A stretch of 15,722 bases of DNA from a virus (Duplodnaviria > Heunggongvirae > Uroviricota > Caudoviricetes). The stretch lies in IMG/VR virus record IMGVR_UViG_2602041549_000013, positions 1 through 15,722 of that record; one strand, written 5' to 3'. Positions 1-15,722 of this stretch are shown in pieces. The notes below the pieces were generated by a model. The model was given only the letters and a program-made list of their open reading frames with translations. It was not told the origin of the DNA and searched no databases. A program made the translations under genes and the position numbers. Within the stretch, counting starts at the first letter, position 1. Each line of letters opens with the position of its first letter.

Positions 1-1059
1 TTATGCTCCGGCTTCTGCGGCGGCGGCGCTGAAGTCGCCAATCTGGATGTTTTCCACCAGTGCTGCGCAGCGGTAGTCCTCAACCACATAGGCTTCGTTA
101 ACGGATTCAAAGTTTTCAATCCGGTCACGTTTCGGGTTGTCGATAACCGAACGGCGGCGGGTGTCCTCCTGCCAGTAAATGGACAGGTTATCCAGACGGG
201 TGATCAGCAGCGCATTCGGCGGGAAGAACGGCGCACGCACGGCCTGCAGACCACCCATGCGTTTCTGACTGATGATCATATCGGCAGCCAGTTTTTCACT
301 GTTTTCCTGCTCTTTGTTGACCAGCGGGAAATACTTGTCAGACAGCAGTTCACGCCCGCAAATCACCACCAGATCGTCATCGTCCTGGTAGACCACGTCG
401 ATAAGCTCATTGACCGCATCCATCACCACAGCGTCCAGGTTGGCATATTCGCCACCTTTCCCGACTTTCACCGCACCCGGTGTGGTTTCGCCGCCCGTGG
501 TGGTGCTGCCCATGACGTGATCCGGTGCATCCTCACGGATTTTCTGCAACCAGCCTTTGTTCACATCCTGCAGCAGCGGGTTTTCACTACGGTTGGAGGT
601 TTTCGCACGCTTCACGCCGTTAAAGCCGATCATGATGCGGTCCAGTGCCTGACGTTTCACGATGGCGTCACGGATACGCACCTGGAAATCCTGAAACTTC
701 GCCCACAGGTCCAGCTTCGCGTAGGTCAGCACCGTGTCAAAGTTGGTCTGCTCGCATTTATATTCCACATCGACCATCAGCGTCGGATCGACAGGTTCAC
801 GCTCTTTCGCGGTGGTGTCAGTGGTTCCGGCAATGGTGCTGCCAACACCCAGCCCCAGCAGCTGACCGGACTGCTCAGTCACTGGCGTGACGTTAATCAG
901 CGTCAGGAAAGCGGCGGACTGCTGGATCTGGTCTTCCAGCGTCTGCTGCACAGACGGCTCCACAGTGAATTTGCTGGACAGTTCTTCAACTGCCACACCG
1001 TTCAGACGCGCCAGCTGCTGCAGGTAAGCGTTAAAAGCAAAGCGGGTATTCTTCTTCAT
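1..1059 (-). CDS. N: major capsid protein (P2 gpN-like), 352 aa
   Basis: Full ORF with ATG at 1059 and stop at 1-3; size and position immediately downstream of the scaffold gene match P2 gpN; recognised from the translated sequence. Confidence 0.85.
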   Translation of the reverse strand: MKKNTRFAFNAYLQQLARLNGVAVEELSSKFTVEPSVQQTLEDQIQQSAAFLTLINVTPVTEQSGQLLGLGVGSTIAGTTDTTAKEREPVDPTLMVDVEYKCEQTNFDTVLTYAKLDLWAKFQDFQVRIRDAIVKRQALDRIMIGFNGVKRAKTSNRSENPLLQDVNKGWLQKIREDAPDHVMGSTTTGGETTPGAVKVGKGGEYANLDAVVMDAVNELIDVVYQDDDDLVVICGRELLSDKYFPLVNKEQENSEKLAADMIISQKRMGGLQAVRAPFFPPNALLITRLDNLSIYWQEDTRRRSVIDNPKRDRIENFESVNEAYVVEDYRCAALVENIQIGDFSAAAAEAGA

Positions 1060-1075
1060 CAGGTTTTGTGCTCCA

Positions 1076-1909
1076 TCAGCAATTGGTCAGAGTGTCAGCG
1101 GGGGCGTTACCGCCTGTTGCACGCTGGCGGTAGTCCTGGCGGCTGTCTTCTTGACTCAGCTTATTCACCAGTTCGTTAAAGGCGGTTTGCTGCTCCTGCA
1201 GAGCAGTCTCCAGCTCAGACAGGCGTTCTTCCTGCTCAGACAGGGATTTTTCTGTGCGTGCGCTCAGGTTCTGCTGCTCAGTGGCGACCAGCTCCACGGC
1301 CTTATGCACATCAGAGAACCGGGCGTCATCGGACTGCTCTTTTTTGGTAAACAGCGCCGTGACACGGGCAAACAGGGACGGCTTGTCCTCCTGGATTTCT
1401 TCCAGTTCGATCACCGTTTCCTCTGCAGCGGTAAAAAGATTGGCGGGATTCTGCTTGCGGTTTGCCAGTGGGTTATGGGCTGCACTGGCGCTGAATGTCA
1501 GCATTTCAGTGCCCAGACTGGCAGGGTCATCAGTGGCAGCCAGGCCGACCAGGTAGGCTTTGCCCGTATCAGCGAACTTCGGGCTGACTTCCATAGAGGT
1601 GAATAATTTCTGGCCTTTTTTCACCAGTTCCACCAGGGACTCCGTTGGCTCAACGTCGGCATACAGCGCCATCTTGCCTGCCAGCGGACCTTCCGTGATT
1701 TCTTCAGCAAACAGCGCCGTCACCTTGCCGTAGCGGTTAAAGGTGCTGTCCGGCAGATAAGACTTGATGTGCTCAAGGTTAATCAGCGCGGTATACACCG
1801 CCGGGTTGTAGCTGGCTGCCATCTGTTCCAGCCATTCACGCTGGATTTCGCGTCCGTCGGTGGTGGCACCTTCCACCCCGATGCGAAAACGCTTTGTTTT
1901 CACTGTCAT
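1076..1909 (-). CDS. O: capsid scaffolding protein (P2 gpO-like), 277 aa
   Basis: ORF divergent from the terminase gene; acidic coiled-coil-like C-terminal half (EQ-rich) typical of scaffolds; position O then N as in P2. Confidence 0.8.
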   Translation of the reverse strand: MTVKTKRFRIGVEGATTDGREIQREWLEQMAASYNPAVYTALINLEHIKSYLPDSTFNRYGKVTALFAEEITEGPLAGKMALYADVEPTESLVELVKKGQKLFTSMEVSPKFADTGKAYLVGLAATDDPASLGTEMLTFSASAAHNPLANRKQNPANLFTAAEETVIELEEIQEDKPSLFARVTALFTKKEQSDDARFSDVHKAVELVATEQQNLSARTEKSLSEQEERLSELETALQEQQTAFNELVNKLSQEDSRQDYRQRATGGNAPADTLTNC

Positions 1910-1987
1910 GAGCCGTGCTCCGTTAGAAAAAACTTACTGGAGCCTTATGGTTGCGGTGATGGGGGCAGTGAAACAATGCGCGGTATT

Positions 1988-2005
1988 TGTACCGACAACC
2001 ACACA
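1988..2005. promoter_or_regulatory. TGT-N12-ACA dyad in the divergent O/P intergenic region; candidate Ogr/Delta-type late-promoter activator site
   Basis: Sequence TGTACCGACAACCACACA seen directly; P2-family late promoters are known to carry a TGT-N12-ACA element centred near -55. Its centre is about 55 nt upstream of a plausible start for the - strand O operon. Confidence 0.3.
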
Positions 2006-2051
2006 AATCGCAGGCGGGGAAAGCCTTCATTCAAGGCTGTAGGTTTGTGCC

Positions 2052-3818
2052 ATGAACACCACACTGACACCCGCAGATCTCGATCCCCGTCGGCAGGCCA
2101 TGCTGCTGTACTTTCAGGGATACCGCGTAGCCCGCATTGCTGAAATGCTGGGCGAGAAAGTTGCAACCGTTCACAGCTGGAAAAAACGCGACAAGTGGGG
2201 TGACTATGGGCCGCTGGATCAGATGCAGCTCACCACCGCCGCACGCTACTGCCAGCTCATCATGAAGGAGCATAAAGAAGGGAAAGATTTCAAAGAGATT
2301 GACCTGCTGGCGCGCCAGTCTGAGCGCCACGCGCGGATCGGCAAGTTTAACAATGGCGGCAACGAAGCCGACTTAAACCCTAACGTCGCCAACCGCAACA
2401 AAGGCCCACGCCGTCAGCCTGAAAAGAATGTTTTCACCGATGAACAGATTGAGAAGCTGGAAGAAATTTTCCATTCCTCCATGTTCAACTACCAGCGCCA
2501 CTGGTGGGAAGCCGGAAAAACCAACCGCATCCGCAACCTGCTGAAGTCACGCCAGATCGGCGCGACCTTCTATTTTGCCCGTGAAGCCCTGATTGACGCC
2601 CTGCTTACCGGACGTAACCAGATTTTCCTTTCTGCCAGTAAGGCACAGGCCCACGTCTTCAAACAGTACATCATCGACTTTGCCAAAGAAGTGGAGGTGG
2701 AGCTGAAAGGCGATCCGATGGTGCTTCCCAACGGGGCCACACTGTATTTCCTCGGCACCAATGCCCGCACTGCCCAGAGTTATCACGGCAACCTGTATCT
2801 GGATGAATATTTCTGGATACCGAAATTCCAGGAGCTGCGCAAAGTGGCTTCCGGTATGGCTATTCACAAAAAATGGCGACAAACCTATTTTTCCACGCCA
2901 TCCAGCCTGACACACAGTGCTTATCCGTTCTGGTCCGGTGCGCTGTTCAACCGTGGGCGCAACAAAGCCGATAAGGTGGACATCGACCTGTCCCACAGCA
3001 ATCTGGCCCCCGGCCTGCTGTGCGCAGACGGGCAATACCGCCAGATAGTCACCGTGGAAGATGCAGTGCGCGGCGGATGTAGCCTTTTCGACCTCGATCA
3101 GTTGCGCATGGAGTACAGCCCGGACGAATACCAGAACCTGCTGATGTGCGAGTTTGTGGACGATCTCGCGTCCGTGTTCCCGCTCAGCGAGCTGCAGGCA
3201 TGCATGGTGGACAGTTGGGAAGTCTGGACCGACTTTCATGCTCTGGCCCTGCGCCCGTTTGGCTGGCGCGAAGTGTGGATCGGTTATGACCCGGCAAAAG
3301 GTACGCAGAACGGCGACAGCGCCGGATGCGTGGTGGTGGCACCGCCAGCCGTGCCGGGCGGTAAGTTTCGCATTCTTGAGCGTCACCAGTGGCGCGGGAT
3401 GGACTTCCGCGCCCAGGCTGACGCAATCAAAAAACTGACCGAGCAGTACAACGTGACCTACATCGGCATCGACTCAACCGGCGTTGGTCACGGGGTTTAC
3501 GAGAACGTGAAAGCGTTCTTTCCTGCCGTCCGGGAGTTTGTCTACAACCCCAACGTTAAAAACGCCCTGGTTCTCAAGGCCTACGACATTATCAGCCACC
3601 GCCGTCTGGAGTTTGACGCCGGATATACCGACATTGCGCAGTCATTTATGGCAATCCGTCGCGCCACCACCGCCAGTGGCAACCGCCCGACCTATGAAGC
3701 CAGCCGCAGCGAAGAAGCCAGCCACGCCGATCTGGCATGGGCAACGATGCACGCACTGTTTAACGAACCGCTGCAGGGCGAATCCGCCAATACCAGCAAT
3801 ATTGTGGAGATTTTTTGA
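2052..3818 (+). CDS. P: terminase large (ATPase) subunit (P2 gpP-like), 588 aa
   Basis: Long ORF divergent from O; size and N-terminal sequence consistent with P2 gpP; its stop overlaps the start of the portal gene. Confidence 0.85.
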   Translation: MNTTLTPADLDPRRQAMLLYFQGYRVARIAEMLGEKVATVHSWKKRDKWGDYGPLDQMQLTTAARYCQLIMKEHKEGKDFKEIDLLARQSERHARIGKFNNGGNEADLNPNVANRNKGPRRQPEKNVFTDEQIEKLEEIFHSSMFNYQRHWWEAGKTNRIRNLLKSRQIGATFYFAREALIDALLTGRNQIFLSASKAQAHVFKQYIIDFAKEVEVELKGDPMVLPNGATLYFLGTNARTAQSYHGNLYLDEYFWIPKFQELRKVASGMAIHKKWRQTYFSTPSSLTHSAYPFWSGALFNRGRNKADKVDIDLSHSNLAPGLLCADGQYRQIVTVEDAVRGGCSLFDLDQLRMEYSPDEYQNLLMCEFVDDLASVFPLSELQACMVDSWEVWTDFHALALRPFGWREVWIGYDPAKGTQNGDSAGCVVVAPPAVPGGKFRILERHQWRGMDFRAQADAIKKLTEQYNVTYIGIDSTGVGHGVYENVKAFFPAVREFVYNPNVKNALVLKAYDIISHRRLEFDAGYTDIAQSFMAIRRATTASGNRPTYEASRSEEASHADLAWATMHALFNEPLQGESANTSNIVEIF

Positions 3819-4855
3819 TGGGAAAGAGTAAGAAGAACCGAGCTGCGGCGACGAAACAGATCCAGCTTAAAAGTCAAACTACAGCCGAAGCATTCAGCTT
3901 CGGCGATCCCGTTCCTGTTCTGGACCGCCGTGAACTGCTGGACTATGTGGAATGCGTACAGATGGACCGTTGGTATGAGCCGCCCGTCAGCTTTGACGGA
4001 CTGGCGCGCACCTTCCGCGCCGCCGTGCATCACAGTTCCCCGATTGCAGTAAAGTGCAACATTCTGACCAGTACCTATATCCCTCATCCGCTGCTCAGCC
4101 AGCAGGCTTTTTCGCGTTTTGTGCAGGACTATCTGGTATTTGGTAACGCCTACCTGGAGAAACGCACGAACCGATTCGGTGAAGTTATCGCCCTTGAGCC
4201 TGCCCTGGCAAAATACACCCGACGTGGATTAGACCTGGATACCTACTGGTTTGTGCAATACGGCATGACAACGCAACCGTATCAGTTCACGAAAGGCAGC
4301 ATTTTTCACCTGATGGAACCGGATATCAACCAGGAGATCTACGGCCTGCCCGGTTATCTTTCTGCCATTCCGTCAGCCCTGCTCAACGAGTCCGCCACGC
4401 TGTTCCGTCGAAAGTATTACATTAACGGCAGTCATGCAGGCTTCATCATGTACATGACCGACGCCGCGCAGAACCAGGAGGATGTAAACAACCTCCGTAA
4501 CGCGATGAAAAGCGCCAAAGGACCAGGTAACTTCCGCAATCTGTTTATGTACTCGCCTAACGGCAAAAAGGACGGACTTCAGATCATCCCATTGTCAGAA
4601 GTCGCGGCGAAGGATGAGTTTCTGAATATCAAAAATGTCAGCCGCGATGACATGATGGCAGCGCACCGTGTGCCACCGCAAATGATGGGGATTATGCCGA
4701 ATAATATTGGGGGGTTTGGGGATGTGGAGAAGGCAAGCCGTGTATTCGTCCGAAATGAGCTAATGCCACTACAAAAGCGATTACAGGAGATGAATGATTG
4801 GCTTGGCAAGGAGGCGATACGGTTTGATACCTACTCGCTAGATATAGCCCCATAA
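3818..4855 (+). CDS. Q: portal (capsid completion) protein (P2 gpQ-like), 345 aa from ATG 3818
   Basis: ATG at 3818 overlaps the P stop TGA (ATGA coupling); the ORF track starts 3 nt earlier at a TTG. Size and position match P2 gpQ. Confidence 0.85.
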   Translation: MGKSKKNRAAATKQIQLKSQTTAEAFSFGDPVPVLDRRELLDYVECVQMDRWYEPPVSFDGLARTFRAAVHHSSPIAVKCNILTSTYIPHPLLSQQAFSRFVQDYLVFGNAYLEKRTNRFGEVIALEPALAKYTRRGLDLDTYWFVQYGMTTQPYQFTKGSIFHLMEPDINQEIYGLPGYLSAIPSALLNESATLFRRKYYINGSHAGFIMYMTDAAQNQEDVNNLRNAMKSAKGPGNFRNLFMYSPNGKKDGLQIIPLSEVAAKDEFLNIKNVSRDDMMAAHRVPPQMMGIMPNNIGGFGDVEKASRVFVRNELMPLQKRLQEMNDWLGKEAIRFDTYSLDIAP

Positions 4856-4857
4856 TA

Positions 4858-4884
4858 AGAAAAGCCACCGTTTGGTGGCTTTTC
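4858..4884. terminator. bidirectional intrinsic terminator between convergent Q and the kinase operon
   Basis: GCCACC-GTTT-GGTGGC hairpin flanked by an A-run upstream and TTTTCTTC downstream, lying between the Q stop (4855) and the - strand stop at 4890. Confidence 0.6.
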
Positions 4885-4889
4885 TTCAT

Positions 4890-5630
4890 TTACTCAATAG
4901 GTTCAAACTCATCTTGAGGAATCAGCGTCGATTGACAGGCTTGGCTTAGTACCCCTGATAATTTACATAATAACCGATAGTTATGAGGAGCATCATCGCT
5001 AATCTTTTCGACCGTTAAAGTGATTGATTTTGGATCATCCAATAACATCTTCTTGATGTCATTACTTAAATACCTAGGGCAGTAACCAACGATTTCAGCT
5101 GGTTTATCTGCACGAACGACAACAGCATCCCCATCGTATTCATTTTGAAGATCCAAGCAAAGACGCAAAATTTGCCCCGGTTTCAATTCAGATACACGAG
5201 CATTAGCTAAGCTATTCAAGTAACCAAGTCCATGTAAGAAGAAAAAATGCTCAAAGTTACCATCAGAATCAAAATCAATTTTTTTGAAAATCTGCAGCTG
5301 ATCAGTGCTTCGTAAGCCTCCCGAGCGAGCAAGAATATCGATAGGATTTACCTTATCTTCTTCAAATCCAAGCCATTTAATGAAACTCGGATACTCTGGA
5401 CGTCTCGGTGATAAAAGGCGATTTTTAAAAAGAGGAAACAATTCTTCCGATACATAAGTTTCACGAACATCACTCATGCCGCTAAACTTTGTAAATTTAG
5501 AAGATTTAAGAGCACCTTTGGTATACCTGAAAACATACCCCGATTTGCGCTCTTGCAAGTTACCAACAACATGCCAGTCTCTGGTATCTGGTGCCTGCCA
5601 TGCGACGTAAACGGAGTTTGTATTAGTCAT
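4890..5630 (-). CDS. kinase partner protein, 246 aa: N-terminal HipA-N/HipS-like region (approx. aa 1-110) fused to a HIRAN-like domain (approx. aa 125-215)
   Basis: Start ATG overlaps the kinase stop (ATGA at 5627-5630). N-terminal VVGNL...YVFRY...LFPLFKNRLLSPRRPE resembles the HipA N-subdomain-1 / HipS pattern; C-terminal LGYL...LKPGQILRLCLDLQNEYDGDAVVV...VGYCPRYLS resembles the HIRAN pattern. Domain calls are from motif memory, not a search. Confidence 0.5.
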   Translation of the reverse strand: MTNTNSVYVAWQAPDTRDWHVVGNLQERKSGYVFRYTKGALKSSKFTKFSGMSDVRETYVSEELFPLFKNRLLSPRRPEYPSFIKWLGFEEDKVNPIDILARSGGLRSTDQLQIFKKIDFDSDGNFEHFFFLHGLGYLNSLANARVSELKPGQILRLCLDLQNEYDGDAVVVRADKPAEIVGYCPRYLSNDIKKMLLDDPKSITLTVEKISDDAPHNYRLLCKLSGVLSQACQSTLIPQDEFEPIE

Positions 5631-6541
5631 TCTAGTAACCTTCTGCGATTTTCCATTACCATTAACGTTGCAAATCTACGTGCACTGTCGGATATACACG
5701 ATGAAGGCACTTGGTTAAACACATCTGTAATGGAATCTTCTGTTAAAACGCTCAACTTACCTAACCAATGGTCGCGAGCGGCAACTCTCCCTTCAACTGC
5801 ATGTTGAAATGCTTCAACAGTCAGCAAGGGCTTTTTATCAGTTTTTGCTTTGAATAGCTCAGAGCGAGCTTTTCTTACAAAACATGGGATTTGTCGATTT
5901 TTATCTTTAGTATTAAGCCGTTCGCTACGCTCATCATCTAACATCTCCCTTCCTAAACTAGCGGCATGATCGTATGTTGGACACAAAAACTGCTCACCAG
6001 TTTCATTGTTAAGCATGATTGCCCAATTTTCATGGTGGCGATCTTGATTACTCACAAGTGCATCGAGCATCAAATATCCACAAAATACATCTGCTGCATT
6101 TAGCCCGGTTAGATCATATACACTCGGAGGAGGCTTGATAGATTCCCTATCTAAACAACCCAAGACCCTTGTGACAGTGTGTTCTCTGACCCTTACCGGC
6201 TTTTCCCCGGCTTGTAAAGGCCCAGGATAATCGAATGTCGAACTGTGAAGCACTTCATTTCCCATTACCATCCGGAAACCAGATGGAATGATATTCTGAG
6301 TCACCACACCGAATCGACCATTGTATCGCGCCAAATCATAGCTAGCATGTGGAATGTTAAGCAAATGACATAACTCAGCAGCACACTTTTCAGACCAATG
6401 CTCGCCAGTACCTGGCCTAGAGTACTTAAACAACTGCAAATTTACAGTGTCATCGGAGAAATAGAACCAAAACTTCTCTTTGGTTCCTAACTGTTCAAGA
6501 TCGTTAGCTACGGGGCTAAGCTCTACCAATTGGTATGGCAT
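5627..6541 (-). CDS. short HipA-family (HipT-like) Ser/Thr protein kinase, 304 aa
   Basis: Gly-rich loop GTKEK near the N-terminus (aa 19-23); catalytic motif D167-R-H-H-E-N172 and downstream LCPTYD191 match the HipA catalytic and Mg-binding aspartate motifs. Region is visibly AT-richer than the phage backbone. Confidence 0.75.
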   Translation of the reverse strand: MPYQLVELSPVANDLEQLGTKEKFWFYFSDDTVNLQLFKYSRPGTGEHWSEKCAAELCHLLNIPHASYDLARYNGRFGVVTQNIIPSGFRMVMGNEVLHSSTFDYPGPLQAGEKPVRVREHTVTRVLGCLDRESIKPPPSVYDLTGLNAADVFCGYLMLDALVSNQDRHHENWAIMLNNETGEQFLCPTYDHAASLGREMLDDERSERLNTKDKNRQIPCFVRKARSELFKAKTDKKPLLTVEAFQHAVEGRVAARDHWLGKLSVLTEDSITDVFNQVPSSCISDSARRFATLMVMENRRRLLE

Positions 6542-6693
6542 CTGACATCCCTGTTTAGCGGATTATGAATAAGTTAGGTTCCATTTTATCCAAACATTGT
6601 CAAATACCCTAAGATTTATTAGATGATAGAGCGATACTGTATGCATGTCCAGCAATCAAATCAATATATAACTCTTATATGGCTTAACGCGCG

Positions 6694-6712
6694 CTCGTAT
6701 CCCCGCCACGCC
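6694..6712. other. candidate cohesive-end (cos) site
   Basis: Reverse complement GGCGTGGCGGGGATACGAG shares its first 13 nt with the 186-type cohesive end as I recall it (GGCGTGGCGGGGAAAGCAT); orientation and position beyond Q are as expected. Recalled sequence, not verified. Confidence 0.35.
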
Positions 6713-6761
6713 TGCCCGCTTTATGTAGTGGTTTTCATGCAGGTGCATGATCTACGCAAAA

Positions 6762-6781
6762 GCCCGCCAGTTCTGGCGGGC
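6762..6781 (-). terminator. perfect 9-bp stem hairpin next to the cos candidate; possible - strand terminator or part of the cos/terminase region
   Basis: GCCCGCCAG-TT-CTGGCGGGC; on the - strand it is followed by TTTTGCG. Confidence 0.35.
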
Positions 6782-7054
6782 CTTAGCAAAAACGATCCTC
6801 AAACGATCATGCAATCTCATGCAGCATAGACATGCACAGACGAGTAAAGCGAATCGGACTTTACGCAAGGTGAACTCCTCAGCGGGTATAATCAGTATGT
6901 CGGAAAATCTCTAAAAATAAATAATTCGGTTAACAGGTATGCTTACAAAAGCATATATTTGATTAAAAATCATGTAAGGGGGAGGATCTCAAACTGAATC
7001 GCCACGGGTTTTGCAAATTTCGATAGTCTCTCTAACGTTTCGGCTGAGGTCAAA

Positions 7055-7480
7055 ATGAAAAGCTTTTACGTATTAATTTTAATTCTGGTTGCAAGCTTTG
7101 TTAGCGTCCCAGTTCAGGCGGTAACAGCTAAAAACTATGAGAAAGGAACTAAAGCTCAACAGAAATCAATAGCTTACCTTTCATGTGCATTCTATGGCAG
7201 TAGCACACAATTAGATCCTAGCTACACGGGGCAAGTACCTACAGCCGATATCAAGATATTACAGAAAGCAGCTTACCACGCTTACAACGATGCGCTCTCA
7301 TACTTAGGCTATGAGGAACCAGATCACGAACAACGCATAATTGATTATGCTGAATTTGTGGCGTCGCAAGAAGCTGTGTTATGGGATAAGCCGGGAATGA
7401 ATGGAAAGCAGGTAACACTAATTGCTCGTTCTCTCTACAATGAGAGTAACTGTAACTTGTTACTGGACTCAATTAAGTAG
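7055..7480 (+). CDS. secreted protein of unknown function, 141 aa, with a cleavable signal peptide
   Basis: RBS GAGGT upstream of the ATG; N-terminal MKSFYVLILILVASFVSVPVQA with AxA-type cleavage site; two Cys in the mature part; AT-rich gene and upstream region. Confidence 0.55.
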   Translation: MKSFYVLILILVASFVSVPVQAVTAKNYEKGTKAQQKSIAYLSCAFYGSSTQLDPSYTGQVPTADIKILQKAAYHAYNDALSYLGYEEPDHEQRIIDYAEFVASQEAVLWDKPGMNGKQVTLIARSLYNESNCNLLLDSIK

Positions 7481-7639
7481 GAAAAAGATGGTATTTTGCC
7501 CGTAGTTTCAACCTTAATCTCCGAACCTGTCGCAGAACGGGCGTTCACTCATCAAATAAACGCCACACCTAACGCCTCACTGTACTCGTTGTTCAACCTT
7601 GCTGACGCCAGAACCAAGTTCAGACGCCAGCAACTTTTC

Positions 7640-7873
7640 TTAATGCAGCCAGCTGTCGTCTTCCCACACCTTCTGCATAATTTTCATCACTTGTTTTCTT
7701 TCTTCGTCCAGTTGCAGTCCGGTCAGTTCCACACCGTTAGAGCTACCTTTGCGGATGCGAATTACCGTTTTGGGATACAGGGGGCGCAGATTGCGGTAAA
7801 GCTCTGATTCAAGGGCGTCCAGGGTAGACTGGTTAATCTTCTGCTCTTTATCGATCATTATTTCAATGCGCAT
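7640..7873 (-). CDS. DinI-family protein, 77 aa from ATG 7873
   Basis: MRIEIMIDK...LDALESEL...YP...WEDDSW aligns with the E. coli DinI pattern; GAGGTG RBS 6 nt upstream of the ATG; the longer ORF-track start at 7945 is not used. Confidence 0.8.
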   Translation of the reverse strand: MRIEIMIDKEQKINQSTLDALESELYRNLRPLYPKTVIRIRKGSSNGVELTGLQLDEERKQVMKIMQKVWEDDSWLH

Positions 7874-7883
7874 AAAAGTCACC

Positions 7884-8072
7884 TCAACTGATGACATCCA
7901 TTGAGCGGTTGTATTCGTGAGTTCTGATTTTTGCCATGAGTTCATCAGTCAACTCAGAAACCCACTGCAGAGCCAGCCCCTTCTCTTCATCACTACACTC
8001 ACTAGCCGCTACAAGCTTAAGAAAAAAATCAATGCGCTGGAGCTTCAAAGACTCCAAAAAATAGTCCTGCAT
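7884..8072 (-). CDS. small SOS-regulated protein, 62 aa; possible Tum-like antirepressor
   Basis: First gene downstream of the LexA box; AGGAGG RBS before ATG 8072; forms an operon with the DinI-like gene. The 97-aa version from 8177 would contain the LexA box and is rejected. Function is inferred by position only, by analogy with the 186 tum operon as I recall it. Confidence 0.45.
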   Translation of the reverse strand: MQDYFLESLKLQRIDFFLKLVAASECSDEEKGLALQWVSELTDELMAKIRTHEYNRSMDVIS

Positions 8073-8113
8073 CTTTCCTCCTATGACACCACACGCAACA
8101 CTGTATGTATAAC

Positions 8114-8133
8114 CACTGTTTATATTTACAGTA
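8114..8133 (-). promoter_or_regulatory. LexA (SOS) box in the promoter of the small-ORF/DinI operon
   Basis: CACTGTTTATATTTACAGTA has a perfect CTGT-N8-ACAG core and matches 17 of 20 positions of the consensus TACTGTATATATATACAGTA; an extra CTGT half-site at 8101-8104; a TTTACA -35-like hexamer lies at 8151-8156 on the - strand. Confidence 0.7.
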
Positions 8134-8225
8134 TATAATAATCTTACTGATGTAAAACGTTTTTTTACATTCATCACCCTGATATACCTGGTATTATTAA
8201 GAGCACGAATTGTTAACCCGCGTAA

Positions 8226-10640
8226 TTAATACAGGTTCCGCCACTGATCATCTTCCTGCAAACGCTGGTTCCGATAGAAGATACGCAGGCCTGCTCCTGA
8301 CGGAATACTGCCTCCGCGAAGGAGTAAATCGACCTCTTTCTCGCTGCCATCAAATCCTCTGGACTTCAGCTCATACACGAGCTGCAGTCGCTGATGGTCT
8401 GTAATTCGCTGTTTGTAGTCTTTACGCCGTTTCGGTTTCACCAGGCGTAACCTTGCAGCCAGTTCCCGGCGCTCTTTTTTGCTCATACTGTGCAGGTAAT
8501 CGTGCAACTCCTTGTCATCCATGCGGGTAATGTCCGTTCTGGTATCCCCATCAGCTGATTTGTCTTTCCCTTGTTGGTTCAAATTTTCAGCAAGGGGACA
8601 GTTATTGCCACGAGTCCAAGGGGCGCAAGCGCCCTGGTCGGCTGCCGCCTCCTGAACGTCAACGGCCTTACGAACCATTTTCCACTTCACTGCATGAGTG
8701 CAGATCTTGCCCTCTGCAATGGGTGACCAGATGCCATAAATACGAATACCGTGATCGCCATAGGCGGTTGGCTCTTCGTTGATTTCATAAGCGGTTCTGA
8801 TGAGGTGATATTTGCGGGAAACCAGTACGCCGCCCTGCTTCATGATGTAGGTGGCAAAACAACCAGCATCAGCAGCAGCCAGGATGGCATCAAGGCGCGG
8901 GTTATCCAGTACCGGCGCACCTGCTTTTTTGTCACCCTGTTGCCTTGCCGCCTGACCAGCCAGCAATCGCAGTTCACGGTAAGCCTGACGCCCCGGAATG
9001 CCAAAGAAGCGGAATTGCTGAACACGATGCAGAGACGCCCAGGCATTAACGTATTCAGCGTTATCACGCAGGGATTTACCCGTTTCCTTACTGATCTCGC
9101 CAGCCAGACCACACCCGTCAATATTCTTACTGATATATTTCGCAATGTAGCTTGTCGGCGTTCCTTTGCGCGGGTTTATCAGCTCAGACTTAAAGCGTGG
9201 CCCCGTGTTATTGCCCAGCTCCTCGCGGTCTTCACGGATGGCAAACTTACGCAACAATGCAGTAATGGCGCGGCGGTCTTTTTTACGCATGAAACACAAC
9301 AGGTGCCAGTGAACTGTGCCGTCATGATGCGGCTCAGCCACCCGCACGCCATACCAGCGCAACCCGGCTTTGTGCATAGCCTTACGAAATGCAGCAAACA
9401 TGCCGACCAGATAATCGCTGCTTTGTCTTACTGTCGCGTTGGTCCAGGTCGGGTTTGGCCTGCCGTTATTTAGCGTGGAATGGAAACGTGACGGACAGGT
9501 GATGGTGTAGAAAACGGCGCAGTCACCACGCATTTCCGCGATAAGCTCCAGGCCTTTAACACAGGCCATCATCTCATTGCGGCGATGCGCCGGGTTGCTG
9601 CTGCTGGCGTTTACCACATCCTCCATGTTCAGCGTGTCGCCGTCTTCGTTCACCAGTTCATGAGAACGGAAAAACTCCAGCGACTTACGGCGCTGCTCAC
9701 GTTTATGCATCACGGCTTCATAGCTGACATAGGGAGATGCTTTTTTGCTGACCAGGCAGACAGCACGCAACTGCTCTTCCCGCCATTCGCAACGCATCTT
9801 CCATAATTTCCGATACCACCAGTCGGCGCACAGCATACGCGCCAGCGAACCCGGAATGAGTTCATAGGGCACAGGTTTGCGGCGGTTTCTTTTCCGGCGG
9901 AGTTGCTCAAACGCAGGCGGTATGACATCCAGTCGCAGGGTTTCTGCAGCCACCTTTTCCCATGTCTTGCGGATTTCTTCTGGCTTAACATCATCGGAGG
10001 CGTACAAATCACCACAAGCGGCATCAAGACACATGCTCATATGCGCAGCGACAAGGGTAGACAGGCGTTTCACCTGATCCTGACTCATTTCAGGCAGGAT
10101 CAGCAGACCGTCCAGCCCTTCATGGCTTGCCATAAAACGAAAAGATGCAGATAGCTGGCTGTCGCGTACATGCTCCAGTCGTTCCAGACATGGCTTAATC
10201 GTCTCACGCAAATAGCGGGAATAAGCCTTTGGCCTGCCCAGGCTGCTGAAATATTCAATACGTTGCATCAGCGGCTTGCTGATATGGGAAGGCTGGGCGT
10301 TGACGTCGGCCAGAATGACCATGTCCGGATTAAAACGCTGCTGCTCATGCGCCATCTTTGCCCGGCTAATGAGCTTATCCTGCTCCATTTCGCGTTGGAC
10401 AGGATCACGGGATTCATTAAAGAAATAACGCTCCCAGACCTGATCACTCAGTGCCTCGCGGCGCAACTGTTCCTGCTCGTTATCGGCAGCGTACAGAGTG
10501 ATCAGGTTTGAAAGCGTAGAAACCGGCGCAACTTCCGCCGGGTCCAGATAAGGGTTAATGGCCTTTTTCGGGCTGTTCCATGAGAATGCTGCGGCAGCCT
10601 CGTTAAAGCCGCAGCAGTTGTTCATATCGGCATGACTCAT
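8226..10640 (-). CDS. A: rolling-circle replication initiator / endonuclease (P2 gpA-like), 804 aa
   Basis: HUH-type motif VHWHLL and active-site tyrosine motif YIAKYISK typical of gpA-type Rep proteins; start ATG overlaps the dam stop (ATGA). Confidence 0.85.
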
Positions 10641-11494
10641 GCACGTACTCCGTACACGGCAGAACTATCCACGCCACGCGAATAATCAAATCCCATCCAG
10701 CAGCGCGGCCCGGAAACAGCAATGATTTCTGTTGCTGATTTACCCTCGCCAGCTGCCACACCGATGCTGCGTTTTACCTTGATATAGTGGTGAGTAAAAT
10801 TGCGATACAGCGAACGGATCAGGGATGTGTCACTGTTAGAAACAATGACTGGATGTCCTTCTGATGACCGATGTTCAAGAACGGATGCCAGGTGATACTG
10901 GTCATCTTCAGTGAAACCATCAGTGTGATAGCCGGAAAACGTACCGTCATACGGCGGATCGCAATACACCACATCTCCCGCCTTCAACATCGCCAGCGTT
11001 TCATCAAAGCTGGCGCAGATAAACGTTGCTCGCTGGGCTTTTTCTGCAAATGTGCGAAGTTCTTTTTCAGGGAAATACGGATTTTTATAATTACCGTAGG
11101 GGATGTTGAAATGCCCGCTCTTGTTATAGCGACATAAACCACGGTAACCGTGACGATTAAGATACAGGAAATATACCGCTTTCATGAAATCAGTAATTTC
11201 AGTTGAGCAGTTAAACTCCTGCCTTATGTTGTAATAAGCCACCTCCCTGTTTGCGATCTCAAATAAAACTCTGGCGCGAGATATAAACGATTCACAATCA
11301 GCGGCAACCTTTTTATAGAGGTTGATTAAATCAGGATTAATATCCGCAACCAGATAGCTGGGATAATCCGTTTCCATCATCACAGCACAGGAACCCGCGA
11401 AAGGTTCAACCAGTCGCGGGCCAGCAGGAAGGTATTTTTTCAGTTCTGGCATAATGGCGGTTTTATTTCCCGCCCATTTCAGGATGGTGCTCAT
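10637..11494 (-). CDS. dam: DNA adenine methyltransferase (Dam family, orphan), 285 aa from ATG 11494
   Basis: N-terminal KWAGNK and FAGSCAV motifs and catalytic DPPY motif; ATG 11494 overlaps the upstream zinc-finger gene stop (ATGA) and follows a GGAGGTG RBS; the ORF-track start at 11554 is not used. Confidence 0.8.
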
Positions 11495-11718
11495 ACAGCA
11501 CCTCCGTTGTAATGTTTGCCTTTCAGTTCTGCGATTTCCTGACAGGTAATGCAAAGCTGCACTCCCGGAATGGCGCGGCGTCGTGCTGGCGGAATTGGCG
11601 CTTCACATTCAATGCAAAGTACGCGTGACACGCCCGGTGATTTGGCACGGGCTGCACGGATATGGCGCTGGCGTTCTTCTTCAACGCGCTGCTGTACGAG
11701 ATCCATTGCATCAGCCAT
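11491..11718 (-). CDS. TraR/DksA-family C4 zinc-finger protein, 75 aa
   Basis: Two CxxC pairs (CIECEAPIP ... CITCQ) in a small basic protein; common position in P2-like early operons. Confidence 0.7.
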   Translation of the reverse strand: MADAMDLVQQRVEEERQRHIRAARAKSPGVSRVLCIECEAPIPPARRRAIPGVQLCITCQEIAELKGKHYNGGAV

Positions 11719-11951
11719 TAGTGGATCTCCTGCGCTTCGTTCTGGATTGCTTCAGCAGTCACGCGCAGCAGTTCTGCCGCTTCCACGTGGTTTAGCTGGC
11801 GGGATGAGATATGACACGCCAGGCTATCAAGGCGAGCAGCCATTGCTTCAGCCCTTGCCCGGCGTTCTTCCAGACGAGCCTCTGTCAGTAAAATATTAAG
11901 CCCTGCGTCATCCGGTCCGGTTTTAGTCGTGAGGGTTTCAATATTACGCAT
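11718..11951 (-). CDS. hypothetical early-operon protein, 77 aa from ATG 11951
   Basis: ORF with AGGAGA RBS 7 nt upstream of ATG 11951; stop overlaps the next start by 1 nt. Confidence 0.45.
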   Translation of the reverse strand: MRNIETLTTKTGPDDAGLNILLTEARLEERRARAEAMAARLDSLACHISSRQLNHVEAAELLRVTAEAIQNEAQEIH

Positions 11952-12018
11952 AATCAATTCTCCTGAATTTAGATAAAGGGATGCCCGGCGGGTTTACGCC
12001 ATTAATTTCATTAGTTGG

Positions 12019-12360
12019 TTAATTCGGCATGGTTAGCCGTCTGGGAAATAAGCTCACCACTGCACGAAAATGATTCATTGCTTTAATCAGCTCCCGCTTT
12101 TCGTCAGTGGTCAGCTCATTAATGCTGATGCTATGACGTTCAGCTGGAATTTTTGCCATAAAGAATATGGCAGCCAGTGCCCGTTTATTTTGTTCATTAT
12201 TGATATCCCGTGGATCACGCATATCTTTAATAAACCGCTCAAGCTCTGACTCAATATTCAGGCCAAAAACTTTCGCCCTTAACTCTGCAATGTGATTAAG
12301 TCCATTCAGGCGTTCACCGGGGCTTAATGGAACAGTTGCTGCAGCGCCATTAATTGCCAT
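12019..12360 (-). CDS. hypothetical early-operon protein, 113 aa
   Basis: ORF in the operon with a purine-rich RBS; no recognisable motif. Confidence 0.45.
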   Translation of the reverse strand: MAINGAAATVPLSPGERLNGLNHIAELRAKVFGLNIESELERFIKDMRDPRDINNEQNKRALAAIFFMAKIPAERHSISINELTTDEKRELIKAMNHFRAVVSLFPRRLTMPN

Positions 12361-12382
12361 ACTTCATATCCCCCAAACGCAG

Positions 12383-12607
12383 CTATCGTTCTTTGTTCTT
12401 ACGGTAACGCTCAAGAGGAGATACATTTTTTCGTATCGTCTCTTTAACCTGCTCTCCCCGTAAAAACGTCCCATCCTTTAACGTGAAAAAGTAACTGCCA
12501 TCGCCCGACAATGACGGATAGCAACAGAGCAAATCATCTTCAGGTACTGAATAACTCTCCCCTCTGTAACGAAACTGATAAACCACTTCACTTTCTGCCG
12601 CATACAT
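12383..12607 (-). CDS. hypothetical early-operon protein, 74 aa
   Basis: GGAG RBS about 9 nt upstream of ATG 12607; aromatic-rich, protein-like composition; overlaps the upstream ORF out of frame. Confidence 0.4.
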   Translation of the reverse strand: MYAAESEVVYQFRYRGESYSVPEDDLLCCYPSLSGDGSYFFTLKDGTFLRGEQVKETIRKNVSPLERYRKNKER

Positions 12608-12774
12608 TTGGACTTTCTCCGTTTCCTCGTGGTCAATTCAGACAGCAATTCATCTTGTGAATGACATGGATGCCAGCGTTTTCCATCCTCACCCGTGATC
12701 CAGCCGTGACCGTAGTGCATTGTCGGGCTTTGTTTTACCAGCAGCGATGCAAATGATGGTTCTTTCGTCAGCAT
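12478..12774 (-). CDS. hypothetical early-operon protein, 98 aa from ATG 12774; 3' portion may be an out-of-frame read-through
   Basis: GAGGTG RBS overlapping the cII stop, ATG at 12774; the last ~45 codons overlap the next gene in another frame and are Lys/Arg-rich. Confidence 0.35.
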   Translation of the reverse strand: MLTKEPSFASLLVKQSPTMHYGHGWITGEDGKRWHPCHSQDELLSELTTRKRRKSKCMRQKVKWFISFVTEGRVIQYLKMICSVAIRHCRAMAVTFSR

Positions 12775-12781
12775 AAGCACC

Positions 12782-13291
12782 TCACAGCAAACCGAATGAA
12801 GCACCGAGGCCAGTCACGGTATCAACTGCACTCGCCATCGCAGGATTAGCCTGTAAACGGGCCTGCAATGAAACAGCAGCCAGCGCCATCAGTCGTGTTA
12901 CAGAGTTAATGCTGCTGATAGCATCACGACGACCGGCACTAGTTTTTACATCACCAGATACCGCACCTGCTGCAACACGCCCGATCTCTGCAGTTGCGCT
13001 CATGACGTAATGCGGCAGTTTCTCTTTTGCTACCTCATTAATCGGTACACATGGCAGACAATGAATCTGTGCCAGAAAACCATCTACCAACGTTGAATCT
13101 TCAGTCAGATCGGTAAGCAGCCAGATTTCTGGTGCGGTTAATAAATGAGGTTGAGCTGGGTTCAGCTTGTTCCGCAGAATCTGCACATTCATGCCCGCAC
13201 GTTCTGCCAGTTGCACCAGATTGTGGCGCAGTGCGAATGCACGACAGGCTTCATCAAAATGTGGATGTTTGGAAACTTGGTAATCAAACAT
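12782..13291 (-). CDS. cII: CII-like transcriptional activator (186 type), 169 aa from ATG 13291
   Basis: N-terminal helix-turn-helix ([30 protein letters not shown]); second gene of the lytic operon after apl; length matches 186 CII as I recall it; GGAG RBS before ATG 13291. Confidence 0.65.
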
Positions 13292-13355
13292 GGTTTTCAA
13301 CTCCGAACTTATCGCAAAATCGAACTCAGCGTCTTATTGCGAAAATAGACGTCTA

Positions 13356-13559
13356 TTAAGCAGACAAAGCATCAACAGTCAGAGCAGCCAGGTTAATCAT
13401 TACCTTTTCACGTTTTTTGTCTTTACGAAGACGATGACGAGGTAGTCGGCCATCAGCCAACATGTCGTTAATCGTATCAATAGAAAGGCCAGTCAGTTCG
13501 CTATAACGTTCGATTGTGACATGTGGTGTATTCAGAGTAATTGAAATGTTAGGTGTCAT
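13356..13559 (-). CDS. apl: Apl/Cox-like excisionase / transcriptional regulator, 67 aa
   Basis: First gene of the - strand lytic operon, divergent from cI; small HTH protein with basic C-terminal tail; AAGGA RBS. Confidence 0.6.
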
Positions 13560-13704
13560 AAGGCAACATTCCTTCTAGATATGGCTTGTGGCGAGCCGTT
13601 GTTTGTCGTGATTAGTAGTGAAGGCTCCAAAAGAACACTTCTGGTTCAACTTTAAGATCGCTTTTGGAATCTGTCAACGAATTTTGGATTTCTTTGGAGG
13701 ACTT
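13560..13704. promoter_or_regulatory. lysis-lysogeny switch region between apl and cI (candidate face-to-face pR/pL promoters and operators)
   Basis: Intergenic region between divergent apl and cI; - strand TTGACA (13673-13678) with TAAAGT 18 bp downstream is a candidate lytic promoter; direct TTTTGGA repeats at 13662-13668 and 13683-13689. Confidence 0.35.
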
Positions 13705-14274
13705 GTGGATTTCAATAGCGGCGGTAAGAAAGCCATAGAACGTTTAGTTGAAGCATATGGGTTCGGTACCCGTCAGGCTCTATGTGATCATTTAGGTGTT
13801 TCTAAGAGCACCATGGCAACGCGCTATATGCGTGATATTTTTCCAGCAGATTGGGTAATCCAGTGCGCCCTTGAAACGGGCACCTCGCTTAATTGGCTAA
13901 CAACAGGGCATGGTTCAAAGCAAGCATCAGCAAATACAAATACTATAGAAGTAGAAAAATATTTATTGTCTGATGGAGCATTGCAGAAAGACGGTTTTTA
14001 TATTTTTGATAAGGGATTTCTACCCTCTACGTTTAAAAAACCTTTTGTCATCACAGATAACAATTCTGAATTTATTTGTGATAAAGAATTTGATGATATA
14101 CGTGATGGTAAATGGGTAATAAGTATTGATGGCGAAATAACGATCCGTGACATTACTCGTTTACCCGGTGGAAGAATCTTCGTCGAGGGTGGAAACAGAG
14201 CCTTCGAATGCAAGATAGAAGACATTGAAATAATTGGTAAAATTATAAGTTTAACAGTCAAGTATGTTAAATAG
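13705..14274 (+). CDS. cI: immunity repressor CI (186 type), about 189 aa
   Basis: HTH RQALCDHLGVSKSTMATRY followed by ETGTSLNWLTTGHG, typical of XRE-type phage repressors; divergent from apl/cII and upstream of int. Start is ambiguous: GTG 13705 after GGAGG is preferred over GTG 13618 or TTG 13684. C-terminal half is AT-rich. Confidence 0.7.
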   Translation: MDFNSGGKKAIERLVEAYGFGTRQALCDHLGVSKSTMATRYMRDIFPADWVIQCALETGTSLNWLTTGHGSKQASANTNTIEVEKYLLSDGALQKDGFYIFDKGFLPSTFKKPFVITDNNSEFICDKEFDDIRDGKWVISIDGEITIRDITRLPGGRIFVEGGNRAFECKIEDIEIIGKIISLTVKYVK

Positions 14275-14289
14275 TACCGGGAGGAAACT

Positions 14290-14481
14290 ATGCTTGGTAA
14301 GGTATTTTTTGTGGTTTTGTCATGTTCTTTGTTATTAAACCCACTAACTACCTATGCTAGAAATTATCCCTGCTCAGGGAAAAAGGGAGGTGTTTCTCAC
14401 TGTACCTCAGATGGCAAATTCGTTTGCAATGATGGAACTATTAGTAAATCCAAAAAAATCTGTACTAAAAACTCACGATAA
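14290..14481 (+). CDS. small Cys-rich secreted peptide or lipoprotein, 63 aa, unknown function
   Basis: Strong RBS GGGAGGA; hydrophobic N-terminus with either a signal-peptidase I site (TYA) or a lipobox-like VLSC; four Cys in a roughly 40-aa mature part; AT-rich. Confidence 0.4.
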
Positions 14482-14669
14482 CTTTTGCTTTTATATCTGC
14501 GTCTAAAATAAAAATGAGCCGCAGGTTAACCGCAAAAGTTACATGCTCACATAGCAAAAAGAATAGCCAACTTAATTATGGCTTCAGTGAGATGTATGGT
14601 CGTAGGATTTCATACATTGACACTGGTTATACATACAGTGAAAATGCTCTCTACTGGAGGGCATTTTTT

Positions 14670-15722
14670 ATGGCAGTACGAAAACTCACCACTGGGAAAT
14701 GGCTTTGCGAATGTTACCCCGCCGGACGAAGTGGGCGTCGTGTGCGTAAACAATTCGTCACCAAAGGCGAAGCACTGGCTTTTGAGCGCCACACGATGGA
14801 AGAAACCGAAGCAAAGCCCTGGCTGGGTGAATCAGTGGATCGTCGAACACTGAAAGACGTGGTTGAGCTATGGTTCAAACTACATGGTAAATCTCTGACA
14901 GCTGGGCAGCATGTCTATGACAAATTGCTGTTGATGGTTGACGCTCTGGGCAATCCTCTTGCAACCGATCTCACCTCTAAAATGTTTGCCCACTATCGAG
15001 ATAAACGCCTGACAGGCGAGATCTACTTCAGCGAGAAATGGAAGAAAGGAGCAAGCCCGGTCACCATTAACCTGGAGCAAAGCTATCTAAGTAGTGTTTT
15101 TAGCGAACTATCCCGTCTGGGCGAATGGTCGTATCCGAACCCACTGGAGAACATGCGAAAATTCACCATCGCAGAAAAAGAGATGGCATGGCTTACCCAT
15201 GAGCAGATTGTTGAATTGCTGGCTGATTGCAAACGTCAGGACCCAATTCTGGCACTGGTAGTTAAGATATGCTTAAGCACAGGCGCACGCTGGCGTGAAG
15301 CCGTAAATCTTACCCGCTCACAGGTGACCAAATACCGAATTACCTTTGTCAGAACGAAGGGGAAGAAAAACAGAAGCATCCCTATCAGTAAAGAGCTTTA
15401 CGAAGAGATCATGGCGCTTGATGGGTTCAATTTCTTCACAGACTGCTATTTTCAATTTTTATCCGTGATGGAAAAAACGTCTATCGTGCTCCCTCGCGGT
15501 CAACTCACACACGTTCTGCGCCATACGTTTGCGGCGCACTTCATGATGTCGGGTGGAAACATTCTGGCCTTACAAAAAATTCTCGGACACCACGATATAA
15601 AAATGACTATGCGTTACGCACATCTGGCACCGGATCATCTGGAAACGGCGCTCCGTTTCAATCCTCTGGCAACGCTGCCAAGTGGCGACAAAGTGGCGGC
15701 AGCGGTTGGCATTACCCCGTAA
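14670..15722 (+). CDS. int: tyrosine integrase (P2/186 type), 350 aa from ATG 14670
   Basis: N-terminal MAVRKLTTGKW...GRSGRRVRKQF typical of P2-family integrases; C-terminal R...HxxR...Y catalytic pattern (LRHTFAAH ... MRYAHL); GGAGGG RBS 8 nt upstream of ATG 14670; the ORF-track extension from 14514 is rejected. Confidence 0.85.
   Translation: MAVRKLTTGKWLCECYPAGRSGRRVRKQFVTKGEALAFERHTMEETEAKPWLGESVDRRTLKDVVELWFKLHGKSLTAGQHVYDKLLLMVDALGNPLATDLTSKMFAHYRDKRLTGEIYFSEKWKKGASPVTINLEQSYLSSVFSELSRLGEWSYPNPLENMRKFTIAEKEMAWLTHEQIVELLADCKRQDPILALVVKICLSTGARWREAVNLTRSQVTKYRITFVRTKGKKNRSIPISKELYEEIMALDGFNFFTDCYFQFLSVMEKTSIVLPRGQLTHVLRHTFAAHFMMSGGNILALQKILGHHDIKMTMRYAHLAPDHLETALRFNPLATLPSGDKVAAAVGITP

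Follow-up and report, generated by a model that had tools for sequence, protein, structure and literature searches.

A probable SOS-induction operon of the split tumA-tumB form in a Fels-2-like prophage of the P2 family

Two cistrons behind a LexA-boxed promoter

The DNA analysed here (the window) is a stretch of 15,722 nucleotides (nt), positions 1 to 15,722 of the IMG/VR virus record IMGVR_UViG_2602041549_000013, and the region in question is a small operon in its middle part, in which two adjacent minus-strand cistrons, tumA and tumB, stand behind one promoter with a LexA box, a layout also present in related phage records (Table 1). The region is very probably the SOS-induction operon of a Fels-2-like prophage of the P2 family, in a form in which coliphage 186's Tum protein is split over two genes. 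An initial annotation, made from the letters alone, had placed here a near-consensus LexA box directly upstream of a 62-codon open reading frame (ORF) and a DinI homologue; its coordinates, strand and ORF sizes are all correct.

The box TACTGTAAATATAAACAGTG (8133..8114 on the minus strand) is the sole near-consensus LexA box of the 15.7-kb window and agrees with the E. coli consensus at 17 of 20 positions, as had been annotated. When the whole window was scanned with TACTGTATATATATACAGTA at up to three mismatches, the expected number of sites was 0.00, and no such site was present in any of 200 dinucleotide-preserving shuffles. The bare CTGT-N8-ACAG core also occurs only once in the window, at this very box; by itself it is weak evidence for a LexA site, because 44 of the 200 window shuffles contain one. 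The first six bases of TACTGTAAATATAAACAGTG, TACTGT, are at the same time the -10 hexamer of a promoter of the form TTTACA-N17-TACTGT, which the LexA box therefore overlaps. The TTTACA hexamer starts about 70 nt downstream of the end of the replicase gene (8226, minus strand) and is invariant in Fels-2, in the E. coli HS prophage DuoHS and in 813R9. A generic sigma-70 promoter scan did not call this promoter, since TACTGT fits TATAAT at just three of six positions, and it was recognised by comparison with the annotated promoter p95 of phage 186. According to the 186 record, the LexA-repressed p95 lies right after gene A, has its -10 TACTGT inside the LexA site and drives the p95-tum operon, so that the map position and the promoter geometry are those found here, which bears out the equivalence to the 186 tum operon that had been proposed.

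The arrangement was compared in nine related Peduoviridae loci, namely those of 186, PSP3, Fels-2, DuoHS, 813R9, Cronobacter ESSI-2, Escherichia ESSI2_ev015, Yersinia MLG42 and Yersinia 06.16-2. A LexA box matching 16-19 of 20 consensus positions is located 18-47 nt upstream of the tumA-type start codon in all nine, and in most of the compared loci, the window among them, TACTGT stands 17-18 nt downstream of a TT(T/C)ACA-like hexamer; the geometry TT(T/C)ACA-N17/18-TACTGT was found in 186, ESSI-2, ev015 and MLG42 as well. Thus, with the window included, the LexA-box architecture recurs in ten loci from at least seven Peduoviridae genera, and the flanking DNA is not alignable between the groups. 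Retention of the box amid such flanks is good phylogenetic footprinting for control by LexA. The -35 hexamer, spacer, LexA box, leader and ribosome-binding site are identical in the window, Fels-2 and DuoHS.

Table 1. Positions in the window of the operon, its signals, the replicase gene and cI
Feature	Position	Strand	Remarks
Stem-loop rich in GC, 6 nt beyond the tumB stop, no U tract	7599..7633	-	RNA fold
tumB, 77 amino acids, DinI-family, counterpart of the 186 Tum C-terminal half	7640..7873	-	ATG 7873
Weak hairpin over the tumA stop codon and the GAGGTGA of the DinI cistron	7878..7895	-	Terminator-like scan
tumA, 62 amino acids, putative antirepressor, homologue of the 186 Tum N-terminal half	7884..8072	-	ATG 8072
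Shine-Dalgarno AGGAGG of tumA	8077..8082	-	Read from sequence, invariant in relatives
LexA box TACTGTAAATATAAACAGTG	8114..8133	.	17/20 consensus, unique in window, identical in Fels-2, DuoHS and 813R9
-10 hexamer TACTGT, left arm of the LexA box	8128..8133	-	Same hexamer at the same LexA-relative position annotated as 186 p95 -10
TTTACA, -35 hexamer of the SOS promoter, corresponding to 186 p95	8151..8156	-	Read from sequence
P2 gpA-type replicase, upstream neighbour	8226-10640	-	PF05840, E 7e-127
cI, 186-type immunity repressor, presumed TumA target	13705..14274	+	PF07022 E 3e-31, PF16452 E 5e-29

Two further elements lie beside the promoter. Directly downstream of the LexA box there is a second ACAGT half-site (GGTTATACATACAGTG, 8096-8113, minus strand), which is without a CTGT left arm and is preceded by bases that differ among close relatives; a role as another LexA box is improbable. 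Just upstream of the -35 hexamer and overlapping it is a perfect palindrome, AAAACGTTTT (8150-8170, minus strand), which belongs here to a longer inverted repeat, ATGTAAAA-N5-TTTTACAT, and the 10-mer of which is kept in Fels-2, DuoHS and 813R9; it could weakly terminate transcription of gene A or be a binding site.

The distance from the LexA box to the start of tumA is 41 nt. The gap between tumA and tumB measures 10 nt, and the GAGGTGA ribosome-binding site of tumB overlaps the tumA stop codon. The two Tum halves are separated by the TGA at 7886-7884 and the 10-nt spacer, and no fused polypeptide of about 146 amino acids is encoded; the locus therefore belongs to the split tumA/tumB subtype. 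A form of tumA with 97 amino acids starting at GTG 8177 (7884-8177), as given in the mechanical ORF list, was rejected, the extension crossing the promoter and the LexA box and the complete orthologues being annotated with 62 amino acids. The mechanical call for tumB is likewise extended (7640-7945, 101 amino acids from an ATG), and public gene calls of 84-123 amino acids for the small protein show the same upstream-extension artefact. The hairpin over the junction of the cistrons has a fold energy of -10.7 kcal/mol, which is not significant (z -1.4), and it may possibly contribute to translational coupling of tumA and tumB. Behind tumB, the stem-loop has an 11-bp stem, UUGCUGGCGUC...GGCGUCAGCAA, two G-U pairs included, and the fold energy around it is not significantly below that of shuffles (z -1.6); the conserved operon may end here. 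Homology to Fels-2 and DuoHS ends exactly at the tumB stop codon (7636-7642), and 813R9 still matches beyond this point, including 7599..7633. This pattern marks the tumB stop codon as the edge of a cargo hotspot. Furthermore, STM2726 of Fels-2 was considered as the counterpart of 186 orf97, both having 243 amino acids, and the comparison showed that they are unrelated; the gene after tumB is therefore variable cargo, outside the conserved operon.

The two products as separate halves of Tum

The downstream product had been called a clear DinI homologue, and this holds. TumB matches the Pfam family DinI (PF06183) with an E-value of 1.2e-22 and 80.4 bits (cut-off 24.2) over profile positions 2-63 of 63, and phrog_189 with an E-value of 2e-29 over profile positions 71-148 of 151. 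It is 41% identical to residues 71-145 of 186 Tum (E 3e-24), and it aligns over its full length with E. coli DinI (PDB structure 1GHH, E 3.6e-6); this covers the acidic helix at the C-terminus, which ends in W-E-D-D-S-W. In contrast, it reaches only 42.5 bits against the NCBIfam DinI equivalog NF007893, the cut-off of which is 111 bits, and TumB is therefore a phage DinI-like paralogue and not the host DinI orthologue. TumB probably acts on RecA filaments and so adjusts how strong or how long the SOS signal is; it is probably not itself the antirepressor.

TumA shares 98% identity with STM2728 of Fels-2 and with ECHS_RS04495 from E. coli HS and 100% with the ORF of 813R9, and it matches phrog_698 (PHROGs, 'unknown function') with an E-value of 4e-38. 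Searches of Pfam, NCBIfam, PADLOC and PDB sequences with the 62-residue ORF gave no match, and BLASTP aligned neither this ORF to 186 Tum or to PSP3 TumA nor PSP3 TumA to 186 Tum. The empty BLASTP result was put down to the limits of seeding with proteins so short and diverged, given that Smith-Waterman alignment with shuffling and profile methods were clearly positive. The Smith-Waterman score of TumA against residues 1-70 of 186 Tum is 57, compared with 21 +/- 4 for shuffles, of which 0 of 2000 reach it (z about 9), and the alignment is ungapped over residues 6-41 of both proteins. For the profiles, the TumA family was gathered by scanning 1.8 billion cluster representatives in full with HMMER and the family of the 186 Tum N-terminal half was gathered separately. 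The scan yielded 66 TumA-family matches, nearly all of them stand-alone proteins of about 35-135 amino acids, mostly 50-100. A first hhalign comparison with close homologues only (Neff 1.45) was weak (P 0.0011, probability 20%), whereas that with diverse representatives of 50% clusters gave a probability of 96.8% and an E-value of 2.8e-10 over positions 4-44 of each profile. In addition, the hidden Markov model (HMM) of the TumA family scores 35.7 bits on residues 5-48 of 186 Tum and reaches about 40 bits with many proteins of the 186 type. Identity of TumA to the 186 Tum N-terminal half is about 20%, and the joint alignment has four near-invariant shared positions, E7, R13, C26 and A34. PSP3 TumA itself scores 55 against the 186 Tum N-terminal half by Smith-Waterman alignment.

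AlphaFold2 predicts TumA as a hairpin of two helices (residues 2-23 and 28-61, pLDDT 88). Foldseek of this hairpin against PDB found only non-specific helical hairpins (best E 1.3), and the predicted fold appears too simple for structure searches to add information. Cys26, whose codon is at 7995-7997, is placed in the predicted inter-helix loop and is near-invariant across Fels-2-type, 186-type and PSP3 TumA. Many close homologues of the 186 Tum N-terminal half are stand-alone proteins of 63-78 amino acids, some of which bear the name 'Tum protein'; hence the 186 subtype, too, includes the split form, and the fused 146-residue Tum may be a minority form.

Taken by their homologies, the 62-residue ORF and the DinI ORF are thus the two halves of Tum as separate cistrons. 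The initial annotation had suggested that the small product is an antirepressor much shorter than 186 Tum, accompanied by a DinI homologue. The idea of a short Tum-type antirepressor is supported by the homology to the N-terminal half (96.8% in hhalign, 35.7 bits with the HMM), and the alignment with 186 Tum that had been suggested as a check, empty with BLASTP, is positive with Smith-Waterman, hhalign and HMM. What it had missed is that the C-terminal half of 186 Tum is itself DinI-like, so that the pair represents Tum divided into two cistrons. In this refined form, as a split Tum encoded by tumA and tumB, the first interpretation is supported.

The nearest known systems are DuoHS (ECHS_RS04495 / ECHS_RS04500) and Fels-2 (STM2728 / STM2726.1), in both of which replicase A, the LexA-boxed promoter, the 62-residue ORF, the 10-nt gap and the DinI-like ORF of 77 amino acids follow each other as in the window; a difference is the unrelated cargo after tumB, where the window has an ORF of 141 amino acids and a PDC-M03 gene pair. 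In phage PSP3 (NP_958094, NP_958095), a cistron of about 60 codons and then a DinI-like one are likewise found directly after gene A, and the LexA box (19/20 in PSP3) overlaps a TACTGT -10. The record describes tumA as 'similar to 5' end 186 tum; UV induction of prophage' and tumB as 'similar to dinI and 3' end of 186 tum'. However, PSP3 TumA belongs to the 186 subtype, and the PSP3 box is 20 nt from the start codon as against 41 nt in the window. Coliphage 186 shares with the window the map position, the LexA box over the -10, homologous Tum halves and the type of CI target, whereas its halves are fused in one polypeptide of 146 amino acids and its operon contains orf97 downstream, which is absent from the window. 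Its record states for Tum (146 aa) 'expression repressed by LexA; inhibits CI DNA binding', and adds that internal starts also give the C-terminal DinI-like part of about 77 amino acids alone, which 'modulates SOS induction'. The dinI-antirepressor (gfoA/gftA)-irsA operons of Salmonella Gifsy-1/2/3 also combine a LexA box, a small antirepressor against a non-cleavable repressor and a co-transcribed DinI homologue, but dinI comes first there, the prophages are lambdoid and the repressor is of another family (PMC3121763). Moreover, a LexA-boxed tumA-type ORF without a downstream DinI-like gene is present in ESSI-2 (661-868), where it is entirely unannotated, in ev015 (658-913) and in Yersinia 06.16-2 (629-859), the coordinates being those of their own loci. 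As these DinI-less loci keep the tumA-type ORF with its LexA box, the small protein is argued to be the indispensable part.

Proposed switch and competing explanations

The presumed target of TumA is encoded in the same window by cI, which starts with a GTG preceded by GGAGG. The combination of PF07022 and PF16452 in this CI, together with CII (CP76) and Fil, is of the 186 type and not of the P2 type, which agrees with the earlier view of a 186-like induction module. The match of CI to Peptidase_S24 (E 0.009) is below the cut-off of that family, and a repressor of the autocleaving S24 type is not supported. CI is 87% identical to DuoHS CI, its C-terminal ~75 residues being identical and the differences lying in the N-terminal domain and linker, and it is 33% identical to 186 CI. 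The pattern of divergence of TumA and CI is compatible with co-diverging pairs of repressor and antirepressor.

The anatomy of box, promoter and ORFs, the homology of both Tum halves, the near-identity to DuoHS and Fels-2 and the conservation of the LexA box in diverged relatives are the observations behind the following proposal. In the lysogen, host LexA would sit on the box at 8114-8133, cover the -10 TACTGT and block transcription. After DNA damage, activated RecA would bring about self-cleavage of LexA, and the tumA-tumB promoter would fire. TumA, the predicted two-helix hairpin, would then bind or sequester the non-autocleaving CI of the 186 type, which would no longer hold the lytic promoter shut, so that the lytic genes would be switched on and the prophage induced. 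TumB, co-expressed from the same transcript 10 nt downstream, probably modulates RecA filaments meanwhile. The literature contributes the need for tumA and for a cleavable LexA (DuoHS), the binding of CI by Tum (186) and the antirepressor activity in the upstream cistron (PSP3); for the last two, biochemical evidence that 186 Tum inhibits CI DNA binding is attributed to Shearwin et al. (1998), and the PSP3 upstream cistron is reported to carry the activity in PMC3121763, where the split tum arrangement is discussed for Fels-2 and this prophage is regarded as strongly analogous to the antirepressor-regulated 186. A contact between TumA and CI in the present prophage would follow from these cases by analogy.

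The genetic test comes from the 2025 Phollow study (PMC12055606), in which ECHS_RS04495 of the E. coli HS prophage DuoHS was deleted in-frame as 'tum' (its Supplementary Data 1). This gene is the 62-codon ORF directly upstream of the DinI-like gene. Deletion of tum, or lexA(Ind-), abolished mitomycin C-induced lysis and virion formation in DuoHS, and the host SOS reporter still responded in these experiments (PMC12055606). For a near-identical locus, the experiments that the initial annotation had suggested have thus practically been carried out already, and they came out as predicted; its prediction of SOS inducibility agrees with the fact that DuoHS needs for its SOS induction the orthologue, which is 98% identical and stands behind an identical operator. 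It follows that the split tumA/tumB SOS switch is already known, having been described and genetically tested in near-identical prophages, and is not new. The lethality of lexA-null mutations in Salmonella was reportedly traced to Fels-2 by Bunny et al. in 2002.

Several points weigh against this interpretation. For this particular prophage, damage induction would be carried over from its relatives, and the tum deletion in DuoHS could lower expression of the coupled DinI cistron and does not alone separate the two genes. The statement on the activity of PSP3 TumA is a second-hand personal communication (PMC3121763), and the similarity of PSP3 TumA to the window TumA is marginal (Smith-Waterman 33, p 0.03; 4 bits with the family HMM). 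The homology of TumA to 186 Tum comes from Smith-Waterman shuffling and profiles, and not from BLASTP. In addition, CI differs from DuoHS CI in its N-terminal domain and linker, and recognition by the cognate TumA is likely, not proven. Finally, neither the generic terminator scan nor the RNA fold gave a canonical intrinsic terminator at the operon end.

It might be argued that the DinI-like TumB is the induction effector, or that both proteins are needed as a complex, with the 62-codon ORF as a leader or coupling cistron. Both parts are indeed within one polypeptide in 186, the 10-nt spacing and the ribosome-binding site overlapping the tumA stop suggest coupled translation, and an in-frame tumA deletion as in DuoHS could reduce TumB, too. 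However, the antirepressor activity in PSP3 is reported for the upstream gene (PMC3121763), the 186 record calls the truncated DinI-only Tum a modulator and not a CI inhibitor, and non-polar dinI deletions in the Gifsy prophages left induction unchanged (PMC3121763). Moreover, the diverged relatives mentioned above retain a LexA-boxed tumA-type ORF without a DinI gene, and many 186-type homologues of the Tum N-terminal half stand alone with 63-78 amino acids. This explanation is therefore considered improbable. Still less probable is that the operon is an SOS-regulated 'moron' benefiting the host, for example a DinI copy that damps or prolongs the SOS response, the prophage not being damage-inducible through it. 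LexA-controlled DinI-family genes are widespread in prophages with an unclear role (PMC3121763), and the Tum-bearing Salmonella prophage BTP5 combines strong tum expression with no detectable infectious phage; but the near-identical DuoHS locus is required for induction (PMC12055606), Fels-2 is seen as strongly analogous to 186 with its antirepressor (PMC3121763), and apparently intact 186-type cI, cII, replication, portal, terminase and capsid genes are present in the window. That the LexA-like palindrome is a chance AT-rich match in front of constitutive or silent ORFs is hardly credible. The core alone does appear in 44 of 200 shuffles, but the 20-mer at three or fewer mismatches appears in 0 of 200, and the site is invariant among close relatives and keeps its place in diverged genera despite flanks that cannot be aligned.

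With the split Tum taken as the SOS switch, it may be speculated that the split form is functionally distinct from the fused 186 Tum, the dose of antirepressor and the modulation of RecA filaments being set separately, and that C26 makes TumA sensitive to oxidative or nitrosative stress; this we consider doubtful, since both the uncoupled dose and stress sensing by C26 are drawn from conservation and from nothing beyond it. A Salmonella tum was reported to be highly expressed under nitric-oxide shock.

Prophage surroundings, distribution and meaning

By gene content, the window is a P2-family prophage of the Fels-2-like kind (Felsduovirus / 186-type), with immunity of the 186 type and not of the P2 type. 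Among phage records, the closest are those of Felsduovirus-like Peduoviridae from Escherichia, Klebsiella and Salmonella, with Fels-2 as one of them. The window encodes CI, CII (CP76), Fil, Dam methylase and gpA, and on the other side of the operon portal, terminase, scaffold and capsid proteins; the genes for cI, cII, replication, portal, terminase and capsid are apparently intact. The operon lies directly downstream of gene A and before the cos/portal end (portal gene 3815-4855, plus strand), and the order gene A-tum is common to 186, PSP3, Fels-2 and DuoHS. Scans of the whole window for Rfam families and tRNAs gave no hits.

Between tumB and the portal gene there is a variable cargo slot with two overlapping minus-strand genes (4890-6541), encoding a HipA-like protein of 304 amino acids with a weak HipA_C match and a HIRAN-domain protein of 246 amino acids, which match components A and B of the PADLOC candidate defence system PDC-M03 with E-values of 3e-122 and 7e-93, respectively. 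The whole 4800-8300 arrangement is found in 1 of 5426 complete E. coli genomes, and many others cover 79% of it. Furthermore, an ORF of 141 codons (7055-7480, plus strand) is convergent with the tum operon; its product has a hydrophobic, signal-peptide-like N-terminus (MKSFYVLILILVASFVSVPVQA) and matches phrog_7437 (unknown function) with an E-value of 3e-97, and it gave no match in Pfam, NCBIfam and PADLOC.

The 521-bp tum module is common: of 5426 complete E. coli genomes, 1083 (about 20%) contain it with a coverage of at least 80%. In practically every record its small gene carries one of two labels, 'hypothetical protein', as given by PGAP, or, wrongly and in some records, 'levan regulatory protein', and no Pfam or NCBIfam model covers the 62-residue antirepressor. 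As a discovery the operon is of little importance. The gap that remains is the naming of the 62-codon gene, although it has been deleted and phenotyped as tum, and a family model uniting the TumA proteins of the Fels-2 and 186 types would be justified by the profile link to the 186 Tum N-terminal half. For the biology of these phages, the module marks this prophage and similar ones as expected to be DNA-damage-inducible via LexA and a small antirepressor, and such inducibility bears on antibiotic-triggered phage release.

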